From Eledone cirrhosa (lineage: Eukaryota): a stretch of 64,000 nucleotides of DNA. The stretch covers positions 279,806,001-279,870,000 of the forward strand of contig OZ024742.1 in NCBI GenBank assembly GCA_964016885.1. The letters are read 5' to 3'. The notes beneath the pieces were generated by a model. That model did not search any database, was not told the DNA's origin, and worked only from the letters and a program-made list of their open reading frames with translations. The position numbers and the translations under genes are program-made. Below, one piece after another: positions 23,811 through 49,800 of this stretch (the stretch's first letter is position 1; each line of letters starts with the position of its first letter).

Positions 23811-26800
23811 TCATGGTGATTGTGGGGTCAAATAAACAGGTGTGTGTGCAAAAGAGAAAGATGGGGGTGTATGTGGCTCAGGTGTGTGAGCATCTGTGTG
23901 GGCCCGTTTAAGTCTATCAACCGCAATGGTCTCTCTGGATACCTTAATGTCTACAGTGAAATGTTTATCAGAACGAGCCAACACACAGTAGGGTCCAGAG
24001 TACGGTTGTTTGAGAGGTGGTTTCCCGACATCGTTTCTCACAAACACACGGGTCCACGAGGCAATATCCCTCGGGACTGCAGATTTTACAGTTTGTTTCC
24101 TCGTATCCATCGGCGGCAGGTCCTGAAAATGAGAACGCAGACGGGATACGTAGGAAAGCGGATCTTGTGCAGCAAGATCGACAGGGGAAAGCATTTGCTC
24201 AGGCAACGCTAGAGGAGCACCATACAATAATTCGGCCGAGGAGAACCCAAGGTCCTCCTTTATTGGTGACCGAATCCCCAACAACACAATAGGGAGGTAC
24301 TCGCTCCACGCGTAGAGTCAGGAGAAGTCCGCAGAGCGGCTTTTAGTTGTCGGTGGAAACGCTCCACCATTCCATTAGAGGCAGGATGATATGCAGTCGT
24401 TCGGATGCGTTTAGCGCCGATGATTTTCGTTAATTATTGGAAGAGATTCGATTCAAACTGTCTTCCAAGGTCTGTTGTAATCGTGGTTGGCACTCCGAAG
24501 CGGGCAATCCATCCTGATATTAGGGCACGCGCTGTCGTTTCAGCAGTGAAGTCTTTCAAGGGGATGGCTTCAGGCCATCGCGAAAAACGATCAATAACAG
24601 TCAATAGATAAGCATGACCACCACTGACTGGCCAAGGTCCCGGGATGTCCACATGAATGTACCGGAAACGGGCGTCCAGTGTACTGAACGTACCGAGCGG
24701 AGCCTTAACGTGTTTATGGATTTTCGATTTCTGGCAAGCAATGCAGGAACGGAACCAAGCAGTAATATCGCGCCTCATATTTGGCCAGAAGAATCTGGCT
24801 GTTATGAGATTTACTGTGGCAGAAGATCATGGGTGGGAAATGCTGTGTAAATCAAGAAACACAGTACGACGATGGTTTAGCCGGACGAATGGTCTCGGTG
24901 AATGCACGGAAACGTCGCAGTCGCTGAGAATCTGTTCGTCAGCGGTGAGCAATGGCAGGTATTTCAAATTACTCGTCGCAAATTCGGCTGATGTAATATC
25001 CAACGATTCCAGTGCAGGTTGGTCTGCTGCCAAGTGATTTAAATAGATGTCGTGGGATGACGCAATTGAACTGATCGGAAATCGAGACATGGCGTCAGCC
25101 GCTGTGTTTAATGAGCCTGGAATGTGTTGGATATCGTTTGTGAATTGCGAGATAAAGTCGAGATGCCTTGTTTCTCTGGGCGAGTACTTGTCGGACTCTG
25201 CCCTTAAAGCGAAGGTCAAAGGTTTATGGTCAGCATAGATTGTAAAACACCTTCCTTCGAGCATATGTGAAAAATGTTTCACGGAAAGGTAGATGGCTAA
25301 CAGCTCCCGGCCAAGGGTGCTGTAGCGAGTTTCTTCAGGCTTTAACTTCCTGGAGAAAAATTCCAATGGTTGTTGGTGATCCTCACTACTCTGTTGTAAG
25401 ACTGCACCCACTGCAGTATCCGACGCATCAACACAAAGCGAAAGCTTTGCATTGGACGCTGGGTGGGCCAGCAAAGATGCACTAGCCAATGCTGATTTGG
25501 ATTTTTTTAAATCCTCGAGCTGAGTCTGAGTCAAAGTGATGTCCTTATTTTTCTTGCGACAATTTTTCAGATTTAGTAGATTAACACATTGCGGAGCAAA
25601 ACGTCTATAGAAATTTATCAGTCCTAGGAATTGTCGCAACTGACGAAGTGAGGTCGGCGGAGCCAAATCCTCTATAGCCTCAACTCGTTGAAGGGGGGGG
25701 GGGGTCGAATACTCTCGGAGTCAATGACATGACCTAAAATATTCAGCTATTCCGCACCGAAAACATATTTATTTGAACACTGTAATCCTTGAGTCGACAA
25801 AACAAAAGATTCAAATGACGTATGTGTTCTTCTCTGGAGGAACTAGCAATAAGCAGATCATCAATATAAGTGTAGTCGAAATCTAAACCACGAGTGACCT
25901 CATCCACGAACCGTTGAAAGGTGCTAGCAGCATTCCTAAGTCCGAAAGGCATGGTAAGAATTTCGAATGATCCAAATGGAGTCGTAATGGCCGTATTCGG
26001 AATATCTTCTTTCTTGACAGGAATCTGATGATAGGCTCGCACCAAATCGAGCTTCGAGAATATTTTACATCCCTGCAATGACGATGCAAAATCTTGCGGA
26101 ATAGGATATCTATCCGGGACAGTTATAGCATTTAACTTCCTATAATCCCCAATGGGTCTCCGGTCGCCAGAAGTCTTGGGTACCATGTGTAACGGAGAAG
26201 CCCAAGGGCTCGTAGAATGGCGAATTATGCCTAGCTGCAGCATGTGGTCGGACCGTGCTGCCTTCAATTTGTCCGCTGGCAAGCGACGAGGACGTGAGAA
26301 TACTGGGGCGCCAGTTGTAGAGATAAAATGCCCCGTTGTGTGAGTCGGTTCGACAACGCCAAAATTTACCTGAGTAAGCTGTGGGAAAGAATTCAATAAT
26401 TCATGATAGGGATTCCCAGCATTAGCGATGAAAAAGGTCGGGCTAACCGTTGGAAAATTAGCTTTCTGGCCACGAAGAGAAAAACCAGTAATGTCATCTA
26501 CTAGGCGTCGGCCAGGGACGTCCACCGTCAATGCAAAATGGTGTAGAAAATCCGCTCCCAAGATCGGATATGGTAGGTCAGCAACCGTAAAAATCCATTT
26601 GAATTCTCGTCTAAGATTTTTGAATTGCAGAGGAAGCGAGATTTGTCCAACAGTCCGTATCGGCGAATGATTGACAGCTTGTAGATTTATTGATGACTCA
26701 GGAGGAGTTATTGTCATACAATTGACAGGCCAAATACTGCACGAAGCTCCTGTGTCTACGAGGAAAGCTCTTCCAGACAGGAGGTCCTCTATGAAGAAAT

Positions 26801-26864
26801 GGCGGTTCTGTTGTGTCTCGCAGAGTTCCCTTGCCGCTTTTAGTGACTCTGATCTACATTTCCC
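23811..26864 (-). pseudogene. pol: Pol (protease, RT, RNase H, integrase) broken by frameshifts and stops
   Basis: LVDTGA; MPFGLRNA; YIDD; VDASDTAVGAVL; RELLAI; DHKPL; HHCC; [10 protein letters not shown]; HPASNGMVERFHRQLK; GPY. Confidence 0.9.
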
Positions 26865-27628
26865 GAAGCTGAATATTTACATGGAGGCCGGCAATGTTTT
26901 GCCTTATCCGCGAAGGTGGTATGATACCAGCAAAATAATGGATTGCTGGCGGACGAAGTAGTATGCTGACGTGGAGTCGCGAAAGAACGCGAACGACTCC
27001 TAGGCCGCCGGGAATACGGCCTATTCTCCCTGCATAACCGAGCGCCTTGCTGCGTCAAAGCGTCAATAGCCTTCAACATGGCAACCTCGCGTGTCGAGAC
27101 GGGCTGGTTCAAATGAGAGGAAGCAATACGCGAGTCCGAGGCGGTAGACTTTTTTGAAAATTCCACGATTCGATCCGTGGAGGCAGCAATTTTCTCCAAA
27201 GAGCTGGTGTCCACTATATTTGCCAAAATAATTTGGACGTTGTTTGGCAGGCGAGAGAAACATACTTGTTTAATAAAGGAATTATCCTGTTCAGGCGATT
27301 CACTGAGGTCCCTAATGTGGCGCAAATATTCTGACGCCGACCTATTGCCTAGACACTCATCCTCCAACAATGAACGAAATCTGCTCTCAGCAGAACGACT
27401 GTTCCTTCGAAGAATTTCTTCCCGCAACGAATCATAAGAAATACTGGCCGACGGGTTCGTAATCAAATCTTTCACTGTTATAGCGAGTGAAGAAGGAAAA
27501 CCACTTATCAAAAAGTTGAGCTTTTTCTCGGTTTTTACTTCGTTGGCAGCAAAATAAGCGTCTAGCTGCGCAAACCAGAGCTTAGTATCGCCTGAGAACG
27601 CAACCAAACCAGGACCACTCATCGTCAA
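26840..27628 (-). CDS. gag: Gag (CHCC nucleocapsid motif)
   Basis: [10 protein letters not shown]...; [19 protein letters not shown] = C-X2-H-X9-C-X3-C. Confidence 0.85.
26858..26864 (-). promoter_or_regulatory. Candidate -1 ribosomal frameshift heptamer G GGA AAT
   Basis: In correct phase in gag (TCG GGA AAT); the -1 frame stays open into the protease ([27 protein letters not shown]...LVDTGA). Confidence 0.65.
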
Positions 27629-28028
27629 TCTATTACCGCATGGACGAATAAAAGTAACTAATGTTCAAAACGACGGGAAAACAGCACAATTTTCCCTAAA
27701 TATCCATAAAGTTACCGCAAGCAAAAGAAATTCAGTCACAGTACAAGAAATAGCAGCGAAAGTCCTAAAGGTGGAATTTCTGGAACAAGATAGCCATCAT
27801 CAAACAAGATGGCGGCGCATTTCTTTTCCAAAACAAGAATATGGTCGCGTGACGAGGCTAAGCCAATCAGATGGCTGCATTTGAAGAAGAAAGACAATGT
27901 GCGGGAATGTTAGATGGCCAGTCAGCCATTTTTGAAAAAATATATTTTTTCCTTTTTATTTTCTGTAAGACGAACAATTTTCAATTTAAAACGAATGGTG
28001 AAAGTAAGCAGGCTGCGTTTTCATATTT

Positions 28029-32465: not shown

Positions 32466-32897
32466 TCAAGTAAGAATATTTTCGAAACAGCGAGCGAGTT
32501 TGAAATTATAAATGTAAGCTACCGCCGTATTTTGACTAAAGAAATTAAAGAAAATTTTTTAGCCTGATAGTGGGGTTAAGAACCCTCGGAGAAATGGAAA
32601 AAGATGAGTATTGATGTACATGGGAGTCGAACCCACATCTTTGGTTATTCTGACCACTGTGCTACCATTACACCAACACATCAAATTAGAAGCTATAATC
32701 TTAGCAACTGTAAATGTCAAGTAAGAATATTTTCGAAACAGCAACCTAGTTTGAAATTATGAATGTAAGCTATCGTTGTATTTTGACTAAAGAAATTAAA
32801 GAAAATTATTTAGCCTGATAGTTCTTAACCCCACTATCAGGCTAAATAATTTTCTTTAATTTCTTTAGTCGAAAAACGGCGATAGTTTACATTTATA

Positions 32898-35382: not shown

Positions 35383-38300
35383 CTATAGTCTGATGTAGAG
35401 TGAAGGCCCATTCACACGGGCCATTCTCGCCACTTTCACCCATCTTTCATAGAAACGGCTGGGGTGCAGCACCTCTCTCTCCATCCTGATCCTTCTTCCG
35501 AAATGATATCGGAAGAAACGGACCAGTTGTTGGCCAGAGAGAAAGGTGCCCGACCTCAGTCCTTTCAGACGCGTCCACCATACAACCTCTTTCGCCATGG
35601 CTATTACGCACAGAAACACCGCCTCTGCTTCATCTTTGAAGGGGGGAGGCGGCTTGATCATTACAATAGACTCGGTGGTCAACCGGATCGGTCCCACCCT
35701 TGACAGCAGTTGTTCGACATAGCCCCACAGATCGGCTACGCCCGAGCAGTGTACTAATGCGTGTGCAACGGTTTCCTCGTCGCACACGCATCTGGGACAG
35801 ATCTTTTTGGCGGGGTCCCTACCCGGGCGCCCGTGTCTGTAGAGCCTTTCTCGAACGGGTAAAGCCCCTCGGTAGCACTGCCAGGCCAGGGACTTCTGGA
35901 AGTTGTCCATAGGTCCCGGGCTAAATGTCCTACCGAAAAGGCTGGCCAGTTCGTCCTCCTCCATGTCTAGGGCTTCTCCGAGGGCGTCGTCGCACCTGCT
36001 GCGTACCAGCCCTCTATAGAATGTTGCGGTGGAGTCTCCACTGATAACCGGATCCGCCTGCCAGAGGGCGGTGAGCGCCTGGGCACACTCAGTGTGCCAG
36101 GCGCCCAGTTTTCTCGGTCTTTGCTTGACCCAGGATTGCAGCTCGGTGAGTGAGACGAGTCTGGGAAAGGTTCGTCTCACAAACGAGGCCCACACCGGTT
36201 GTCCGGTGAGGAATACGTAGAGGTGCCGTAGCCTTAATGCGTGTTTACGCATCATTAGCCACGGCATCCCCAGCCCTCCTTTCGAAGGGTGTTGACAGCA
36301 GATGGATCTCCTCACCATAGGAGCCCGCCTCTTCCAAAGGAATTGGAAGAGCGCGCGCTCCATCTTGGTGAGGGTTTCCCTTGGGCAGGGCACTACGGTC
36401 AGGCGGTAGTAGATGACGGACGCTATGTAGGTGTTCGCCACCTCCGCCCGACCTTTCAGGGATAGTTTGCAACTGGCCCACTTCTGGGTCAGTGCAAACA
36501 CTCTGTTCGTAACCTCCGCCCAGTTTTTCTCCACCTGGAGGTCCGGTCCGAACCAGACCCCGAGCAACTTCACCGGGCCCTCCGTCCAGCGTCCGACGAC
36601 GCTATCGGAGGGCATCGGTCTGCCCCTCCACGTGCCGAGTTGCAAACCGATCGACTTGTCCCGGTTCAGCTTAGCCCCTGTGAACTTTTCGTACTCCTCC
36701 AGTAAGGTGCCGACCGCCTCGATTTCGGAGGCCGTCGACACCATTACTGTCACGTCATCGGCGTAGGCCGACACCGCTTTCCGCAATCCCGGTTCCAAAG
36801 GGATGCCCTGCAACAACTCCAACTTCCGCAGTAGTGGCTCGAGAGTCAATACATACAGAAGGGAGGAGAGAGGGCACCCTTGTCGGATGGACCGCGCGAT
36901 TTTGAACGGCTCCGAGAGGTAGCCGTTCACCTTGACCCTAGAGCAGATGCGGCTGCTGTGCATAGCAGTGATCCAGCCCCTGAAAACGGGTCCGAAGCCT
37001 GCCGCCGCTAGCACCGCATCCAGGTAACCATGGTCGACCCTATCGAACGCCTTAGATTGATCCAAGTTGATCAGAGCCCCACCAAAGCCGGGTTCGTTCC
37101 CAACCCTCTCTATGATGTATCGCATGAGGTGGAGGTTGTCATGGATGGACCTGGACGGGATAGCGCATGTCTGCGCATCTCCCACCAGGTTGCCCACGAC
37201 AAGCGCCAACCTCTTTGCTAGCACCTTGGCCAAAATCTGTAACTCTGTATTTAGCAGTGTTATGGGCCTGAAGTTACTTATTTCGTCCCCCTTGTTCTCG
37301 TCCTTCCTCACTAGCGTGACTACGCCCTTGGTCACAGTACAGGGAATTCTCCCGTTCTGTTGCCAGTTGCAGTAGACCGCCTCGAGGAGATCGGGGAACA
37401 AGTCCGGCATAGCTAGATATAATTCGTAAGGAAGACCATCGAGACCCGGGGATTTGCGTTTGCCGCATTGGCTCAGCACGTCCTCTATCTCAGCGGCCGA
37501 AATCGGCTCCTCGCAGGACTTCGCCTCCCTGTCCGAGAGGCGCGGCAGGCCGTCGAGGTATGGACCGAAGTCCACGTTCCCAACCGGCTCCCCGCCCCTC
37601 CCGAACAGTCGGGCAAAGTGCCTTTGAAAGGCCTCACACATCTGCTTAGGCTCAAGAATCGCCCGTCCATCCAGGTCTCGCAAAGACCGGATGGTGGATT
37701 TAGTTCCACTGTTGGCCTCTGTCACGCGGGCCCAGCTAACAGCTTTGGTCCCCTCGTTCCCTAGAGCACGTATTTTACTTCGGACAACGCAGCCTTCGTG
37801 CTTCGCGTCGAAAAACTGGCTCAAAGCCGTTCTCGACGCTAGCACTCTGGCCACGTCGCCGCTTCTAATTGCCTCTTCTACTCTATCTATTAGCTCCCTT
37901 TCCTTCCTATTCCTATCCGCAGCTAGAACCTTACTAAATTCTATCGAGACTACTCTAATCTCTCTCTTTAGAGATACCCACCACCTGCTGTTGACGATCG
38001 CTCCAGTCAACCGTTCCTTAACTAACGTACTAATCCGATTCCTGTAGGCTCTACTTGCCGGCAAGGACAAGTTGAGCTTCCAGTAACCGGGGCCCTGTCT
38101 ATGAGTTCTGTCAAGGTTGACCATGCAGGTCACTAATTTGTGGTCTGAATAGCCAACAATGCGCATTTTTGGACAACTTAAAAATTCCTTATCCTTAATT
38201 CTAACTAAGAACCTATCTAGGTACGACCTAGATGATCCGCTACGATTTGCCCAAGTCCAGGTTGGCGCAGTCGGAAAATCTAGTCGATATCTATCGGCCA

Positions 38301-38820
38301 GGTCAAATCGACCGATTAACCCTTTGAGGCTATTACACCCCTCTCTATCGGGGCAGGCCCCTACGTAGTCCCAACGTGCATCTAGGATACCATTCCAGTC
38401 CCCCACTAATAGCAAGGAGCGGGACGTCCCTAGAAAAGTCTCCAGACGATGGAAGAAGTCCGGCCGCATTGACCCGAAAGGGCCGTAGGCGGCTACCAAC
38501 CTAAACGCTCCGCCTTTACCACTGCCAAGGTCCAGAACCACTAGTCGACCCTCCGGGTCCAAATGTACCATCTGTGTTGCGAGACCCAGATGTTTTTGCA
38601 GCAGAACGACAACTCCACCCCCACCTCCAGGCTGACAGAGAGATGCGTGCATCTCAAAGTCATCAAAGGTGGGGGCCAGCTGTCGCACGTTGCTGATCCG
38701 GGCCTCGCAAATAACCATCACATCTATACGTTGTGACCTGAGGTCATTTAGAAGCATTGCTTGCTTCCAAGTTGAGCCCAGGCCACGCGCATTTAAACAG
38801 CCTACTCTTAGCATAGCCAT
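35383..38820 (-). CDS. LINE ORF2 protein: APE endonuclease + reverse transcriptase + CCHC
   Basis: CLNARGL, GDWN, SYLDRFLV, SDH; KSPGLDG, FRPITLLN, LDQSKAFDRV, QGCPLS, YADD; CPRC..ETVAHALVHC; first ATG at 38820. Confidence 0.95.
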   Translation of the reverse strand: MAMLRVGCLNARGLGSTWKQAMLLNDLRSQRIDVMVICEARISNVRQLAPTFDDFEMHASLCQPGGGGGVVVLLQKHLGLATQMVHLDPEGRLVVLDLGSGKGGAFRLVAAYGPFGSMRPDFFHRLETFLGTSRSLLLVGDWNGILDARWDYVGACPDREGCNSLKGLIGRFDLADRYRLDFPTAPTWTWANRSGSSRSYLDRFLVRIKDKEFLSCPKMRIVGYSDHKLVTCMVNLDRTHRQGPGYWKLNLSLPASRAYRNRISTLVKERLTGAIVNSRWWVSLKREIRVVSIEFSKVLAADRNRKERELIDRVEEAIRSGDVARVLASRTALSQFFDAKHEGCVVRSKIRALGNEGTKAVSWARVTEANSGTKSTIRSLRDLDGRAILEPKQMCEAFQRHFARLFGRGGEPVGNVDFGPYLDGLPRLSDREAKSCEEPISAAEIEDVLSQCGKRKSPGLDGLPYELYLAMPDLFPDLLEAVYCNWQQNGRIPCTVTKGVVTLVRKDENKGDEISNFRPITLLNTELQILAKVLAKRLALVVGNLVGDAQTCAIPSRSIHDNLHLMRYIIERVGNEPGFGGALINLDQSKAFDRVDHGYLDAVLAAAGFGPVFRGWITAMHSSRICSRVKVNGYLSEPFKIARSIRQGCPLSSLLYVLTLEPLLRKLELLQGIPLEPGLRKAVSAYADDVTVMVSTASEIEAVGTLLEEYEKFTGAKLNRDKSIGLQLGTWRGRPMPSDSVVGRWTEGPVKLLGVWFGPDLQVEKNWAEVTNRVFALTQKWASCKLSLKGRAEVANTYIASVIYYRLTVVPCPRETLTKMERALFQFLWKRRAPMVRRSICCQHPSKGGLGMPWLMMRKHALRLRHLYVFLTGQPVWASFVRRTFPRLVSLTELQSWVKQRPRKLGAWHTECAQALTALWQADPVISGDSTATFYRGLVRSRCDDALGEALDMEEDELASLFGRTFSPGPMDNFQKSLAWQCYRGALPVRERLYRHGRPGRDPAKKICPRCVCDEETVAHALVHCSGVADLWGYVEQLLSRVGPIRLTTESIVMIKPPPPFKDEAEAVFLCVIAMAKEVVWWTRLKGLRSGTFLSGQQLVRFFRYHFGRRIRMEREVLHPSRFYERWVKVARMARVNGPSLYIRL

Positions 38821-38844
38821 GTTGGTGGTGAAGAGAAAAGGCAC

Positions 38845-40626: not shown

Positions 40627-40829
40627 TTAAAAAAATATTGACTTTTCAACAAGAAAAAACTTTTTTTAACTATTTCGCCTAAAGGCGTAGAATATTTTGA
40701 GAGACTGACCAGATCAAAGTTTGACCTGGCAGTCCCTCTACAAAATGGTACAAAAATTAAAGTTATCAGACAAGAATTTCTATAGAAATTTAAACAGAAC
40801 TTACTCAGCAAGTTATACGCGTGTGTCCA

Positions 40830-42401
40830 TCCCAGACTCGTCTCACTCACCGAGCTGCAATCCTGGGTCAAGCAAAGACCGAGAAAACTGGGCGCCTGGC
40901 ACACTGAGTGTGCCCAGGCGCTCACCGCCCTCTGGCAGGCGGATCCGGTTATCAGTGGAGACTCCACCGCAACATTCTATAGAGGGCTGGTACGCAGCAG
41001 GTGCGACGACGCCCTTGGAGAAGCCCTAGACATGGAGGAGGACGAACTGGCCAGCCTGTTCGGTAGAACATTCAGCCCGGGACCTATGGACAACTTCCAG
41101 AAGTCCCTGGCCTGGCAGTGCTACCGAGGGGCTTTACCCGTTCGAGAAAGGCTCTACAGACACGGGCGCCCGGGTAGGGACCCCGCCAAAAAGATCTGTC
41201 CCAGATGCGTGTGCGACGAGGAAACCGTTGCACACGCATTAGTACACTGCTCGGGCGTAGCCGATCTGTGGGGCTATGTCGAACAACTGCTGTCAAGGGT
41301 GGGACCGATCCGGTTGACCACCGAGTCTATTGTAATGATCAAGCCGCCTCCCCCCTTCAAAGATGAAGCAGAGGCGGTGTTTCTGTGCGTAATAGCCATG
41401 GCGAAAGAGGTTGTATGGTGGACGCGTCTGAAAGGACTGAGGTCGGGCACCTTTCTCTCTGGCCAACAACTGGTCCGTTTCTTCCGATATCATTTCGGAA
41501 GAAGGATCAGGATGGAGAGAGAGGTGCTGCACCCCAGCCGTTTCTATGAAAGATGGGTGAAAGTGGCGAGAATGGCCCGTGTGAATGGGCCTTCACTCTA
41601 CATCAGACTATAGGTGAGGAAGATGAAAGACCAAGGGAGCACCCCTTCTCTGTGCTCCTGAGGAGAAGGGTTGCACACTTTTTTCGGGGGTGTGTGCGAC
41701 CCCCCAAGGCGCCTCCTCTCTATTGAGGATTTTGTTAAAAATTTTATTTTTTGTTATATCTTATTTTATTTTTATATTTTGTTATTGCCTTCTCCTTATT
41801 GAGGACGCCTTTTTGTGTAAACTCCCCCCTTTGTACTTGTCCCACTTTTGATGCCCTAGTGGCAAATAAAAGAAATATATCTATCTATCAAGCAGAGGCG
41901 GTGTTTCTGTGCGTAATAGCCATGGCGAAAGAGGTTGTATGGTGGACGCGTCTGAAAGGACTGGGGTCGGGCACTTTTCTCTCTGGCCAACAACTGGTCC
42001 GTTTCTTCCGATATCATTTCGGAAGAAGGATCAGGATGGAGAGAGAGGTGCTGCACCCCAGCCGTTTCTATGAAAGATGGGTGAAAGTGGCGAGAATGGC
42101 CCGTGTGAATGGGCCTTCACTCTACATCAGACTATAGGTGAGGAAGATGAAAGACCAAGGGAGCACCCCTTCTCTGTGCTCCTGAGGAGAAGGGTTGCAC
42201 ACTTTTTTCGGGGGTGTGTGCGACCCCCCAAGGCGCCTCCTCTCTATTGAGGATTTTGTTAAAAATTTTATTTTTTGTTATATCTCATTTTATTTTTATA
42301 TTTTGTTATTGCCTCCTCCTTATTGAGGACGCCTTTTTGTGTAAACTCCCCCCTTTGTACTTGTCCCACTTTTGATGCCCTAGTGGCAAATAAAAGAAAC
42401 A

Positions 42402-42432
<31 letters not shown>

Positions 42433-42449
42433 ATATCTATCTATCTATC

Positions 42450-42480
<31 letters not shown>

Positions 42481-42613
42481 CTATCTATTGTTATATCTTA
42501 TTTTATTTTTATATTTTGTTATTGCCTCCTCCTTATTGAGGACGCCTTTTTGTGTAAACTCCCCCTTTGTACTTGTCCCACTTTTGATGCCCTAGTGGCA
42601 AATAAAAGAAACA

Positions 42614-42708
<95 letters not shown>

Positions 42709-42978: not shown

Positions 42979-43063
<85 letters not shown>

Positions 43064-43070
<7 letters not shown>

Positions 43071-43650
43071 TAGCGAAGCAAGCGGTTATTAAACAATTTT
43101 CTAAATAAATTAAAAAATGATTAAATAATCACCTGTTCAGACGCTGTACATTGTACCTGTTGAAGTATCCATCCACTTCTATAATTATTCTCCTTATGTA
43201 GAGAACAAAACGTTGAATAATGCTGCTAATTTTAGTGGCAATTCGACATGTTAATAATATCCAGCTTTTATCAGCGAACTGATTATGCGTGTGTGCCATT
43301 TTAACGGCTTGACCGCATGCGTTGGGCCGGGACCATAAAATTTACTTGCTATAAGGCTTGATACCTTATGGCGTGGGAATAGGACTGTCTGAAGATTCAT
43401 TTCTTTCCATTGGAAATTCGTTGGATTTTCAATCTTTCGGAATGATGAAACCGTCGGTAACAGCGTCTGAACAGGTGATTATTTAATCATTTTTTAATTT
43501 ATTTAGAAAATTGTTTAATAACCGCTTGCTTCGCTACTTTTATATTGTTCTGGTATCTCGAATTAGTGTCATTGAACCACATGTATTATAAACAACTTGA
43601 ATATTTCTACAAGTACATTGTACCTGTTGAAGTATCCATCCACTTCTATA
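43064..43650 (+). mobile_element. Non-coding HHR element: inverted arm + 467-bp unit with 38-bp terminal direct repeat
   Basis: 43064-43147 is the reverse complement of 43460-43543; 43146-43183 is identical to 43613-43650; in (TA)n. Confidence 0.8.
43385..43463 (+). ncRNA. Type I hammerhead ribozyme
   Basis: CTGT-CTGAAGA-tTCATT...AATGAt-GAAA-CCGTCGG-TA-ACAG; predicted GUA cleavage after 43459. Confidence 0.8.
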
Positions 43651-43818
43651 TATATATATATATATATATACATAGCCAGTGGGATGGCGTCATCTTATGG
43701 TTAAAACAGCACGAAGAAAAGGGCCTCATTACCCTGCGCGTCAATCGGGCCACTCCACGACGGCGGAGTGCAACCCGAGCGACGAGAGGCTGCTAAGAAT
43801 CACAGGGTCCTACTCGTT

Positions 43819-43853: not shown

Positions 43854-43998
43854 CGAAGGAAATGTGGTAAGGAACCAGGTGGACCATAACGCACCAAAGT
43901 ACTCAATACTTGAGGTAGTAGAGTGGGTAATAGGAACCAGTAAGACCCCGACAGCTGAGCGGCTTGAGCTCAGCTGTCGGGGTCTTACTGGTTCCTAT
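43851..43998 (-). mobile_element. Family A fold-back fragment
   Basis: Tail and HHR 3' side on the minus strand (43851-43960), inverted arm 43960-43998; a further 17-bp piece at 43805-43821. Confidence 0.75.
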
Positions 43999-44324: not shown

Positions 44325-44340
44325 GCATATATATATATAG

Positions 44341-45047
44341 GTATTTCGATGATTAGTATGCTATAAATGTGCAATTAAAGTGTACTCGAGATGTAAGGTT
44401 ATCAGCTTGTCTCGTGACTCCGTCAGTGTGAGGAAACTTTCTCCAGACTGATCGTTACCAGTTGAATTTTCGAATATATATATATATATATATGCAAAAG
44501 TTCTATTTAAATTGTTGGGATACAACAAGCAAATATTTTTAAACTGATATAAAGCACTCAACAAGTATTTGGAGTAAACATAGGATATTAACAAATGGAA
44601 ACTGTATTTATAAAACCATATTTATTTTATTATACATATTTCAAGGACACGACGTTAAATTATGGTGTGCTTTCATCAGACAAAATACAATATAGATCAG
44701 TTTTATAAATAAATATTGACATACCCTTCCGGACAACACATATATATGTATTTATACTTATGTATATCTATCATCGTATTTTGTCCTAACTCCCTTATGG
44801 TTGAGTAAAAGTCAGGCTGAAGTAATCTGTTTCCTATGGCAACAGTTACTCGCCAATATTCTACTCTTTACTACCCTTTTGAAGACGGTAACACCACGTG
44901 ATAATTTTACCTTTCGAAAATTTAACTTGGTAGCGATCAATCTGGAGAACGTGTCCTCACACTGACAGAGTCACGAGACAAACTGAAAACCTTGCATCTG
45001 GAGTACACTTTAATTGCACATTGACAGCATACTAATCATCGAAATGC
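44341..45047. repeat. Diverged ~135-bp inverted repeat (44341-44474 / 44913-45047) enclosing a family F copy
   Basis: ATTTCGATGATTAGTATGCT...TTTTCGAA is mirrored as TTCGAAAA...AGCATACTAATCATCGAAAT. Confidence 0.7.
44492..44726 (-). mobile_element. Family F single-arm copy with HHR (about 44623-44687)
   Basis: Homologous to 31525-31760; CTGATGA...GAAA on the minus strand; TTGAGTGC at 44554-44561. Confidence 0.7.
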
Positions 45048-45436
45048 CGCAGTCGGACCTTTGATGAAAAGTTAGGTATATTTTTGTCTATTTTCGCTTA
45101 GCACTTATTATAAACAAACACATACACCACACACACACGCGCACATATTTATGTACATATACGTGTGTGCGTGTGTATATATGTGTATATATAAATGGTG
45201 CACTTTTAGGCTACGGCCAGCCACACGAACGTGTAACATAACCTGAATAAGCAATGCCTGTGCTTTGAGGGTTTTTTAAGTGGGGAAAGGCTTTGCACTC
45301 GACTAATCCCACTCTCTGAGCATCACAACACTACCCGAAAAGGAGAACTGGTCAACATCATCAGATGCTTCCGAATTTGCAGAATAGTGTTTTCATAGCA
45401 ATTGGGGGCCCGTTCACTCCCAGGTGAAAAAAAAAG

Positions 45437-48830: not shown

Positions 48831-49378
48831 CATATATTATCTATATGTATGTACGTATAGATGTATATATGTATATATATTTGTGTGGGAATGTGTGTTT
48901 GTGAAATAACAATTTCTGTGAGACCATTTAAATGCATTAGTTCTTCAGCTCTATCCAATTTATTAACATGTCTGGGATTCTATCAATTCCAATCTATATC
49001 ATCATCATGTAAATTGCACCTCGCAAGCGCATGTATAGAAGTTGTCCTTTTTTACTCACTTTTGTTCTGTTTTCAATTAATCATCGTTGCATAACTGTCA
49101 TTTTCTGAAATAAATAACCATTCTTTTTTTAACCAGCTAGCGATAAATATATATATTAGTGGAGGATATGCGGGCAAGTGTTTAGTGCGGTCAGCTCAGG
49201 AACATAATAGAGTTGTAGTTTCGATTCACACACATGCACACGAGGAAACACACACACACGCGCGCGCGCGCGCTTACACATACACACGCACGCATACGCA
49301 CACACACATGCATACAGGCACGCACGCACACACACACATACATATACACACATATATATATATATATATACATACATA

Positions 49379-49800
49379 TATCAATGATATTAATACATGG
49401 AAACTATATTTATGAAACCATATATATTCTATTATATATATTTCAAGGGTACCAAAACTTTGGTAAGCTCTCATCAGATAAAATACAAAGTTTGTTTTAT
49501 AAATATTGACATATCCAGGAAGGAGATCTTAAGGGTTCAAGTTTTTGCTGAACCCTTAAGATCTCCTTCCTGGATATATCAATATTTATAAAACAAACTT
49601 TGTATTTTATCTGATGAGAGCTTACCAAAGTATTGGTACCCTTGAAATATATGTAATAGAATAAATATGGTTATATAAATATAGTTTCCATCTATTAATA
49701 TCATTGATATTATACTCCAGAAAACTTGTAGAGTGCTTCGAATCAGTTATAAATATATATATTTGTTGAATTACCAACAAATTAAATATCCCTTTTGCTT
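49379..49800 (+). mobile_element. Family F fold-back insertion with two HHRs
   Basis: Arms about 49379-49538 / 49549-49711. Minus HHR at 49425-49485: TATTTTAT-CTGATGA...GAAA-TATATA-TA-ATAGAATA; plus HHR at about 49603-49663. Confidence 0.8.

Follow-up and report, generated by a model that had tools for sequence, protein, structure and literature searches.

A non-coding hammerhead repeat of Eledone cirrhosa forms two-armed insertions with paired outer ends, probably copied from an RNA circle

A 64,000-nt stretch of Eledone cirrhosa DNA (assembly GCA_964016885.1, contig OZ024742.1, positions 279,806,001 to 279,870,000; hereafter the window) carries a short repeat copy whose inverted arm appears to begin where a predicted hammerhead would cut its own RNA. 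The question raised by this locus is whether that coincidence records how the copy was made. The first-pass annotation proposed that one cDNA had run off a cleaved linear RNA and that the other had read through the cleavage site on a circular or multimeric template. We examined both the focal insertion (Table 1) and the genomic family to which it belongs.

Table 1. Features of the focal insertion, in window coordinates
Feature	Position	Strand	Remarks
(TA)n target tract, left	42987..43063		sequence
Inverted short-end arm	43064..43147	-	outer end = unit 43543-43545; inner end 43460-43462
2-nt microhomology	43146..43147		joins the two arms head to head
Long-end arm	43146..43650	+	505 nt = 467-nt unit + 38-nt overshoot
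38-nt overshoot	43146..43183	+	duplicate of 43613-43650; variable 5' truncation
Type I hammerhead	43385..43463	+	stem I 4 bp, long stem II, stem III 3 bp and near-palindromic; predicted cut after 43459
Fixed outer end 1	43541..43545	+	putative RT start site, 86 nt past predicted cut
105-nt 'tail'	43546..43650	+	separates the two fixed ends; long-end arm only
Fixed outer end 2	43646..43650	+	putative RT start site, 191 nt past predicted cut
(TA)n target tract, right	43651..43670		sequence

The inverted arm (43064-43147) is, as first described, the reverse complement of 43460-43543 at 84 of 84 positions, and the identity can be extended to 43062/43545 within the ambiguity of the TA tract. Its exact start at the cut is one of three equal placements: 43460 is possible, and so are 43461 and 43462, given the 2-nt microhomology. 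The direct repeat was likewise found intact (43146-43183 and 43613-43650 agree at 38 of 38 positions, period 467), but it is not the terminal feature it had been taken for. A fixed terminal repeat was ruled out by the many other arm lengths of other copies, and the supposed monomer junction at 43183/43184 is no junction of the monomer, the 38 nt being a variable overshoot of the 505-nt arm. As the direct repeat is such an overshoot, the family has no apparent LTR framing. Twelve inner ends of family arms nevertheless fall at unit positions 466-7.

The focal long-end arm crosses the predicted cut site and carries a single hammerhead; many family loci have at least two consecutive hammerhead units. 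The unit has a GC content of 35%. The description of the sense part as non-coding was borne out: the longest stop-free frame wholly within the element is 75 aa, and an ORF check found no RT and GIY-YIG reading frame in it, so that the element is not an autonomous PLE. Approximately ten differences that are absent from nearly all other copies lie within 43146-43612, none of them in the duplicated parts. Unusual youth, considered from the identity of the repeats, was rejected, as 0 mismatches over 228 nt fits the 1% rate of the subfamily.

The hammerhead motif was located at its predicted place, with GUA at 43457-43459, CUGAAGA at 43389-43395, GAAA at 43447-43450, stem III as ACC/GGU and stem I as CUGU/ACAG. 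Stem I has 5 bp in most copies and is shortened in the focal copy by a private G>A at 43384. Stem II of the 467/457 family is closed by U.U instead of G10.1-C11.1; of 20 relatives, 8 have a G-C closing pair. Rfam searches with gathering and E-value cut-offs gave no hammerhead match at the focal motif, and the folding energy of the hammerhead alone, an uninformative measure here, was no better than that of shuffles (z -0.27). The core pattern matched the genome 1,695 times, compared to once for the reversed control. A set of 20 distinct relatives showed no variation in the core or in stem III, and 12 of 26 pairs had two-sided changes, against 0 of 500 shuffles, a control that is inflated by the kinship of the sequences. 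Such motifs do not always cut: of 9 predicted retrozymes examined by Li 2026 (bioRxiv 10.64898/2026.07.22.740005), 1 was seen to cleave and 8 were not.

The 3.0-Gb genome was searched with the unit at the DNA level, which gave at least 150 matches from 40 of 1,318 candidates. Further loci were collected with the exact post-cut 29-mer (43 matches), by junction pattern, and with each of the two end motifs, for which 100 of 103 and 100 of 110 matches were listed. After removal of overlapping loci and the near-duplicate L049, 170 non-redundant loci were parsed. Later sampling demanded one fixed outer end; the first, end-blind samples gave the same ends. The parsed loci contain 305 crossings of the cut site, compared to 352 exact cut-site matches genome-wide, and most of the family is therefore probably covered.

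The expected recurrence of the unit in tandem arrays was found genome-wide by DNA search, with periods of 467 and 457 and up to 19 laps in one arm. An older subfamily of 467 bp includes the focal copy and shows 1% divergence within insertions; a young subfamily of 457 bp shows 0.2%. Sister families have periods of 459-467 and retain both end distances, about 78-92 and 186-195 nt after the cut. The earlier identification as a retrozyme was upheld by one hammerhead per unit, low GC, tandem units and the lack of an ORF, and from its sequence the family is classed as a non-LTR retrozyme, a non-coding 457/467-bp type I hammerhead repeat at no fewer than 170 loci. The 1,695 core matches also outline a superfamily of hammerhead repeats of about 460 bp (including L204-L233), with GUA and GUC sites and covarying stems, which suggests long persistence as non-coding parasites. 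Other long-stem-II hammerhead families with different sequences were seen at L294:538-1500, L263 and L217; L294 has a PLE reading frame, with two hammerhead copies in head-to-head arrangement upstream of it.

The outer ends of the insertions proved more informative than the inner ones. Inner ends are variable, and outer ends fall at two fixed points 105 nt apart (43545 and 43650 in the focal copy). Outer end 1 is shared exactly by 119 arms, and the genome holds 103 exact matches to this end followed by TA; outer end 2, at unit positions 38-40, is the end of 125 arms and has 110 exact matches genome-wide. We infer that these ends are fixed reverse-transcription start sites bounding a PLE 'tail'. 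The 170 loci contained 95 head-to-head pairs, of which 11 were set aside for want of a canonical outer end (truncated, rearranged or at a contig end). A short-end arm was paired with a long-end arm in 83 of the remaining 84; one pair was short-short and none long-long (binomial 4e-24). The flanks of the single exception, L111, are inverted-duplicated, and several arms that seem to stand alone are in fact joined to one of the opposite type only 10-12 nt long. Junction overlap averaged 1.51 nt (n=76), compared to 0.73 for random joins. Of the 83 complete two-arm insertions, 77 had TA-like sequence on both flanks, although sampling partly demanded TA at one end. Partial tandems, an inverted 5'-truncated copy and a one-ended tail together form the sequence signature of PLE insertion.

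Several smaller observations concern arm length. Insertions of 40 bp with a long end only (L182, L183, L190, L195) share a start at unit position 466 and match the classical PLE tail in size. Some short-end arms stop within about 10 nt of whole laps (L007, L160, L163, L089, L129, L132, L021, L111), and the inner ends of 18 long-end arms lie close to the short-end start; such stops might reflect either TA microhomology or collision on a circle. In a post hoc comparison, 11 long-end arms stopped at the other start site, compared to 24 in the flanking windows (p 0.04), a hint that the long-end RT stalls there.

Whether the two arms of an insertion derive from the same template was assessed by subfamily, length and private variants. 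All 55 insertions that could be classified had two arms of one subfamily, where about 19 discordant cases were expected (one further insertion was ambiguous and 28 were unclassifiable), and the lengths of paired arms were correlated (rho 0.44, p 3e-5, n=83). Among 149 insertions scored, 14 contained a total of 18 private variants that were fixed in all copies of the site within the insertion. Eleven of these spanned both arms, and 9,306 site-arm tests gave no fixed variant specific to one arm. The largest insertion, of 13 kb on C1, has arms of 8.7 and 4.2 kb and one private variant in 28 of 28 units; a 23-mer with this variant has 27 matches in the genome, all within that insertion. L175 likewise has a private variant in 11 of 11 units, and its 10 genome matches are all local. 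Longer insertions were younger, that is, least diverged (rho -0.33, n=81). Repeated copying of one monomer would be expected to leave such variants throughout the laps of the two arms.

The agreement is not complete. Common variants differed between arms in 28 instances, compared to 122 that were shared. Variants found in some laps only (positions 40 and 179 of the 13-kb insertion, 35 of L175 and 143-144 of L079) suggest an additional contribution from local duplication, conversion or assembly error. Sequence cannot discriminate between one RNA molecule and two from the same source unit. The claim of a template longer than one unit was supported.

We consider it likely that the focal copy is one two-armed insertion into (TA)n, made by a borrowed PLE RT/endonuclease dimer that would have synthesized two cDNAs on a predicted monomeric RNA circle. 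Tandem copies would be transcribed, the hammerhead would excise monomers, probably cleaving as a dimer given its short palindromic stem III, and the monomers would be ligated into circles. The PLE dimer would nick both strands of the target, and these would prime 86 nt and 191 nt after the cut. Each RT would then travel around the putative circle for under one to 19 laps. The cDNA 3' ends would join by 0-5 nt of microhomology, each completing the second strand of the other, to leave head-to-head arms; at the focal site one arm would have run 86 nt and the other 505 nt. The geometry is that of twin priming. A more specific version, in which the dimer copies one ribozyme-made circle from both nicked strands, with the start site hard-wired per subunit and occasional run-off at the cut, is advanced tentatively, as somewhat short of an even chance.

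The reading first offered for the focal copy, that its short arm ran off a hammerhead-cleaved linear RNA and its long arm was copied from an intact circle or multimer, was evaluated across the family. The cut site was crossed by 181 of 262 arms. A start compatible with 43460 was found in 6 of 87 short-end arms of two-arm insertions (L035, L038, the focal copy, L084, L157 and L172), which makes it the top site for this arm type. The focal copy and L084 had both been selected for this feature; with the two left out, 4 of 85 unselected arms remained, compared to 0.6-0.76 expected (p 0.003-0.006 for 43460), although chance alone would give a count of 4 at one site or another with a probability of 0.19-0.27. 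Long-end arms did not share the excess (0 of 92; Fisher p 0.12 against short-end arms), pooling both types weakened it (p 0.02-0.03), and other inner-end sites, at unit positions 330 and 20, reached 4-5 arms.

Sister families did not replicate the excess against the +7 control. Six junctions fell at their cut, all beginning at the first post-cut base, compared to none at the -9 control and 12 true junctions (15 matches) at the +7 control; these controls were unmatched in composition, the +7 site being more permissive and TA-starting and the -9 site having a GC-rich start. Restricted to head-to-head joins, the counts were 1 at the cut and 5 at the +7 control. In five of the six sister-family junctions the cut adjoins a TA tract, where AT microhomology suffices. 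The partner arm crossed the cut site in 5 of 6 cut-site cases of the focal family, and one nicked circle is therefore not a simple explanation. Run-off at a cleaved 5' end thus draws weak support from the unselected short-end arms (p about 0.003) and is borne out neither in the long-end arms nor in the sister families. We regard this origin of the focal short arm as rather doubtful, and give the same standing to genuine run-off in the family, at no more than a few per cent of arms; an arm ending at the predicted cut, an uncommon outcome, may be chance. Such run-off would be compatible with twin priming on a circle, as a minority route.

The circle itself has a competitor in linear read-through multimers, on which a PLE would twin-prime in the same manner while long arrays were later extended and homogenised in place by unequal exchange and conversion. 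Linear multimers account equally well for end pairing and subfamily concordance, and short copies such as the focal one need only a more-than-unit linear RNA. Neighbouring laps with common variants indicate some homogenisation in place, and in vitro the PAc enzyme works on linear RNA that is uncleaved (PMC11167929). However, they would require homogeneous source arrays of at least 19 units with variants found nowhere else in the assembly, and they fit poorly with the lack of arm-specific fixed variants and with the youth of the longest arrays. No lap-ordered variant was in register across the arms in the long insertions displayed, nor was there a strong pile-up of inner ends that would mark an RNA 5' end. 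On this evidence we judge linear multimers unlikely.

Two independent neighbouring insertions (the alternative named at the outset), a later inversion or an assembly fold-back would suit a genome whose TA tracts gather many unrelated insertions side by side and the resemblance of L111 to a later inverted duplication. They would also suit the inversion junction of the focal copy, for which independent reads gave no confirmation; the four runs of contigs, of unspecified type, cover the unit and display neither starts nor ends. However, near-absolute end pairing, concordant subfamilies, arms that abut with short microhomology and private variants common to both arms make such origins extremely improbable here and effectively refute them at the family level.

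The preferred reading, copying of a circle by a PLE dimer, calls for an enzyme of this class. Locus L285 (G000:C1:145870300-145877300) contains a PLE with RT, CxxC linker and GIY-YIG, of apparent Neptune type from its domain order. Its family ends +82 and +150 nt after a hammerhead-like GUA, in (TA)n, and all 14 of its two-arm insertions, 10 with abutting and 4 with spaced arms as counted by eye, pair both ends. Fourteen of its inner ends fall within an 8-nt interval about 70 nt upstream of its site (-65..-72), probably a transcript start; by inference this is the footprint that a fixed RNA 5' end would leave. The pile-up gives short two-arm insertions. This family has a degenerate hammerhead core (UUGAAAA) and a 68-nt tail and is abundant, its best 40 copies being 94-100% identical over the queried 311 bp; relatives were seen at L043, L068, L118, L122, L132, L150, L154, L202, L205, L308 and L316. 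The L285 PLE shows no sequence similarity to the retrozyme unit and therefore illustrates the mechanism rather than being a demonstrated partner. Searches by blastn and nhmmer found no autonomous partner with sequence similarity in 50 GIY-YIG loci of 10,597 candidates; the sole match, at L286, was rejected, since it is a sister retrozyme that lies next to a PLE but in a TA tract of its own.

The window contains further repeats. Palindromic or inverted pairs lie in or near TA tracts at 43932-43997, at 44340-44470 with 44918-45048 (88%) and at 49378-49539 with 49549-49710 (96%); they are probably two-arm insertions of other PLE-dependent families. A 524-bp partial tandem at 41363-42620 terminates in (TATC)n, overlaps a frame with a zf-RVT match (40786-41613, + strand) and is likely a LINE 3' end. 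On the minus strand are a 1,153-aa endonuclease-RT LINE frame (35383-38844), LTR-retrotransposon RT and RNase H remnants (24827-27664) and a tRNA-like sequence (32612-32682).

Compared with described non-LTR retrozymes, the family shares non-coding, low-GC (<45%) tandems ranging from monomer to multimer, one type I hammerhead per unit and co-occurrence with PLEs. Its unit lies within the 51-972 bp given by Li, Clavereau and Pollet 2026 (bioRxiv 10.64898/2026.07.22.740005), in which at least two consecutive hammerhead units define an 'active' copy. At 457/467 bp it is longer than the 170-400-nt circles of Cervera and de la Pena 2020 (PMC7229834), and it is known here from DNA alone. Its hammerhead is PLE-like, with a long stem II that is closed by U.U. 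Inverted two-arm insertions whose ends are fixed and paired are not known to be described in Cervera 2020 or Li 2026, whose supplements may hold similar cases.

The insertions resemble those of EN+ PLEs, for which Craig 2021 (PMC8557442) describes partial tandems, an adjacent inverted 5'-truncated copy and a one-ended tail. The (TA)n bias, known for Neptune and Naiad PLEs, and the hammerhead within the repeat are further likenesses to the Neptune type. In contrast to those elements, the family has no ORF, its tail is 105 nt rather than 30-40 nt, both arms can be multimeric, and pairing is near-absolute rather than 'often' seen (PMC8557442). Non-autonomous Chlamys elements such as MRC1 are also PLE dependants with multicopy head-to-tail insertions, but most of them have no hammerhead, and their 3' ends resemble those of their autonomous partners (PMC8557442), whereas the partner search for this family returned none in 50 GIY-YIG loci.

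The closest biochemical parallel is Poseidon PAc of Anolis, for which Frangieh 2024 (PMC11167929) showed that two RT start sites bound the tail, that each DNA strand is cut and then extended, and that insertion in vitro does not need the hammerhead. PAc and the family have in common two internal start sites that define the tail, a predicted dimer and an AT-rich target; the first start of PAc lies about 85-92 nt past its hammerhead cut (+111-118 vs +26), compared to 86 nt in the family. In vitro, PAc showed no strand difference in start site and was assayed on linear RNA, whereas the genomic copies of the family imply one site per strand and multi-lap copying. Taken together, our verdict from these sequence comparisons is that the family represents a new non-LTR retrozyme that appears to move like a Neptune-type PLE.

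The mechanism of tandem, inverted and tailed PLE insertions is called open in both PMC8557442 and PMC11167929. Hammerhead circles were proposed as the template by Cervera 2014, and Cervera 2020 (PMC7229834) repeats that suggestion; in both, a circle as PLE template has the form of a proposal only. The young family offers countable genomic predictions, namely one-site-per-strand pairing and private variants in all laps, and a full-text literature search that covered few subscription articles and no supplements found no published report of such counts. Strict pairing recurs in the autonomous Neptune-type family. The main value of the locus is this family-level pattern of paired starts and lap-wide private variants, which opens the circular-template model of PLE insertion to direct testing; the single-locus coincidence at the cut is minor. 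For in vitro work the family further provides a 457-nt substrate and a candidate class of enzyme. If the more specific version of copying from a circle is correct, each array would be a direct fossil of an animal circular RNA that was reverse-transcribed into a chromosome in two-headed rolling-circle fashion, with up to 13 kb of DNA made from a 457-nt circle.
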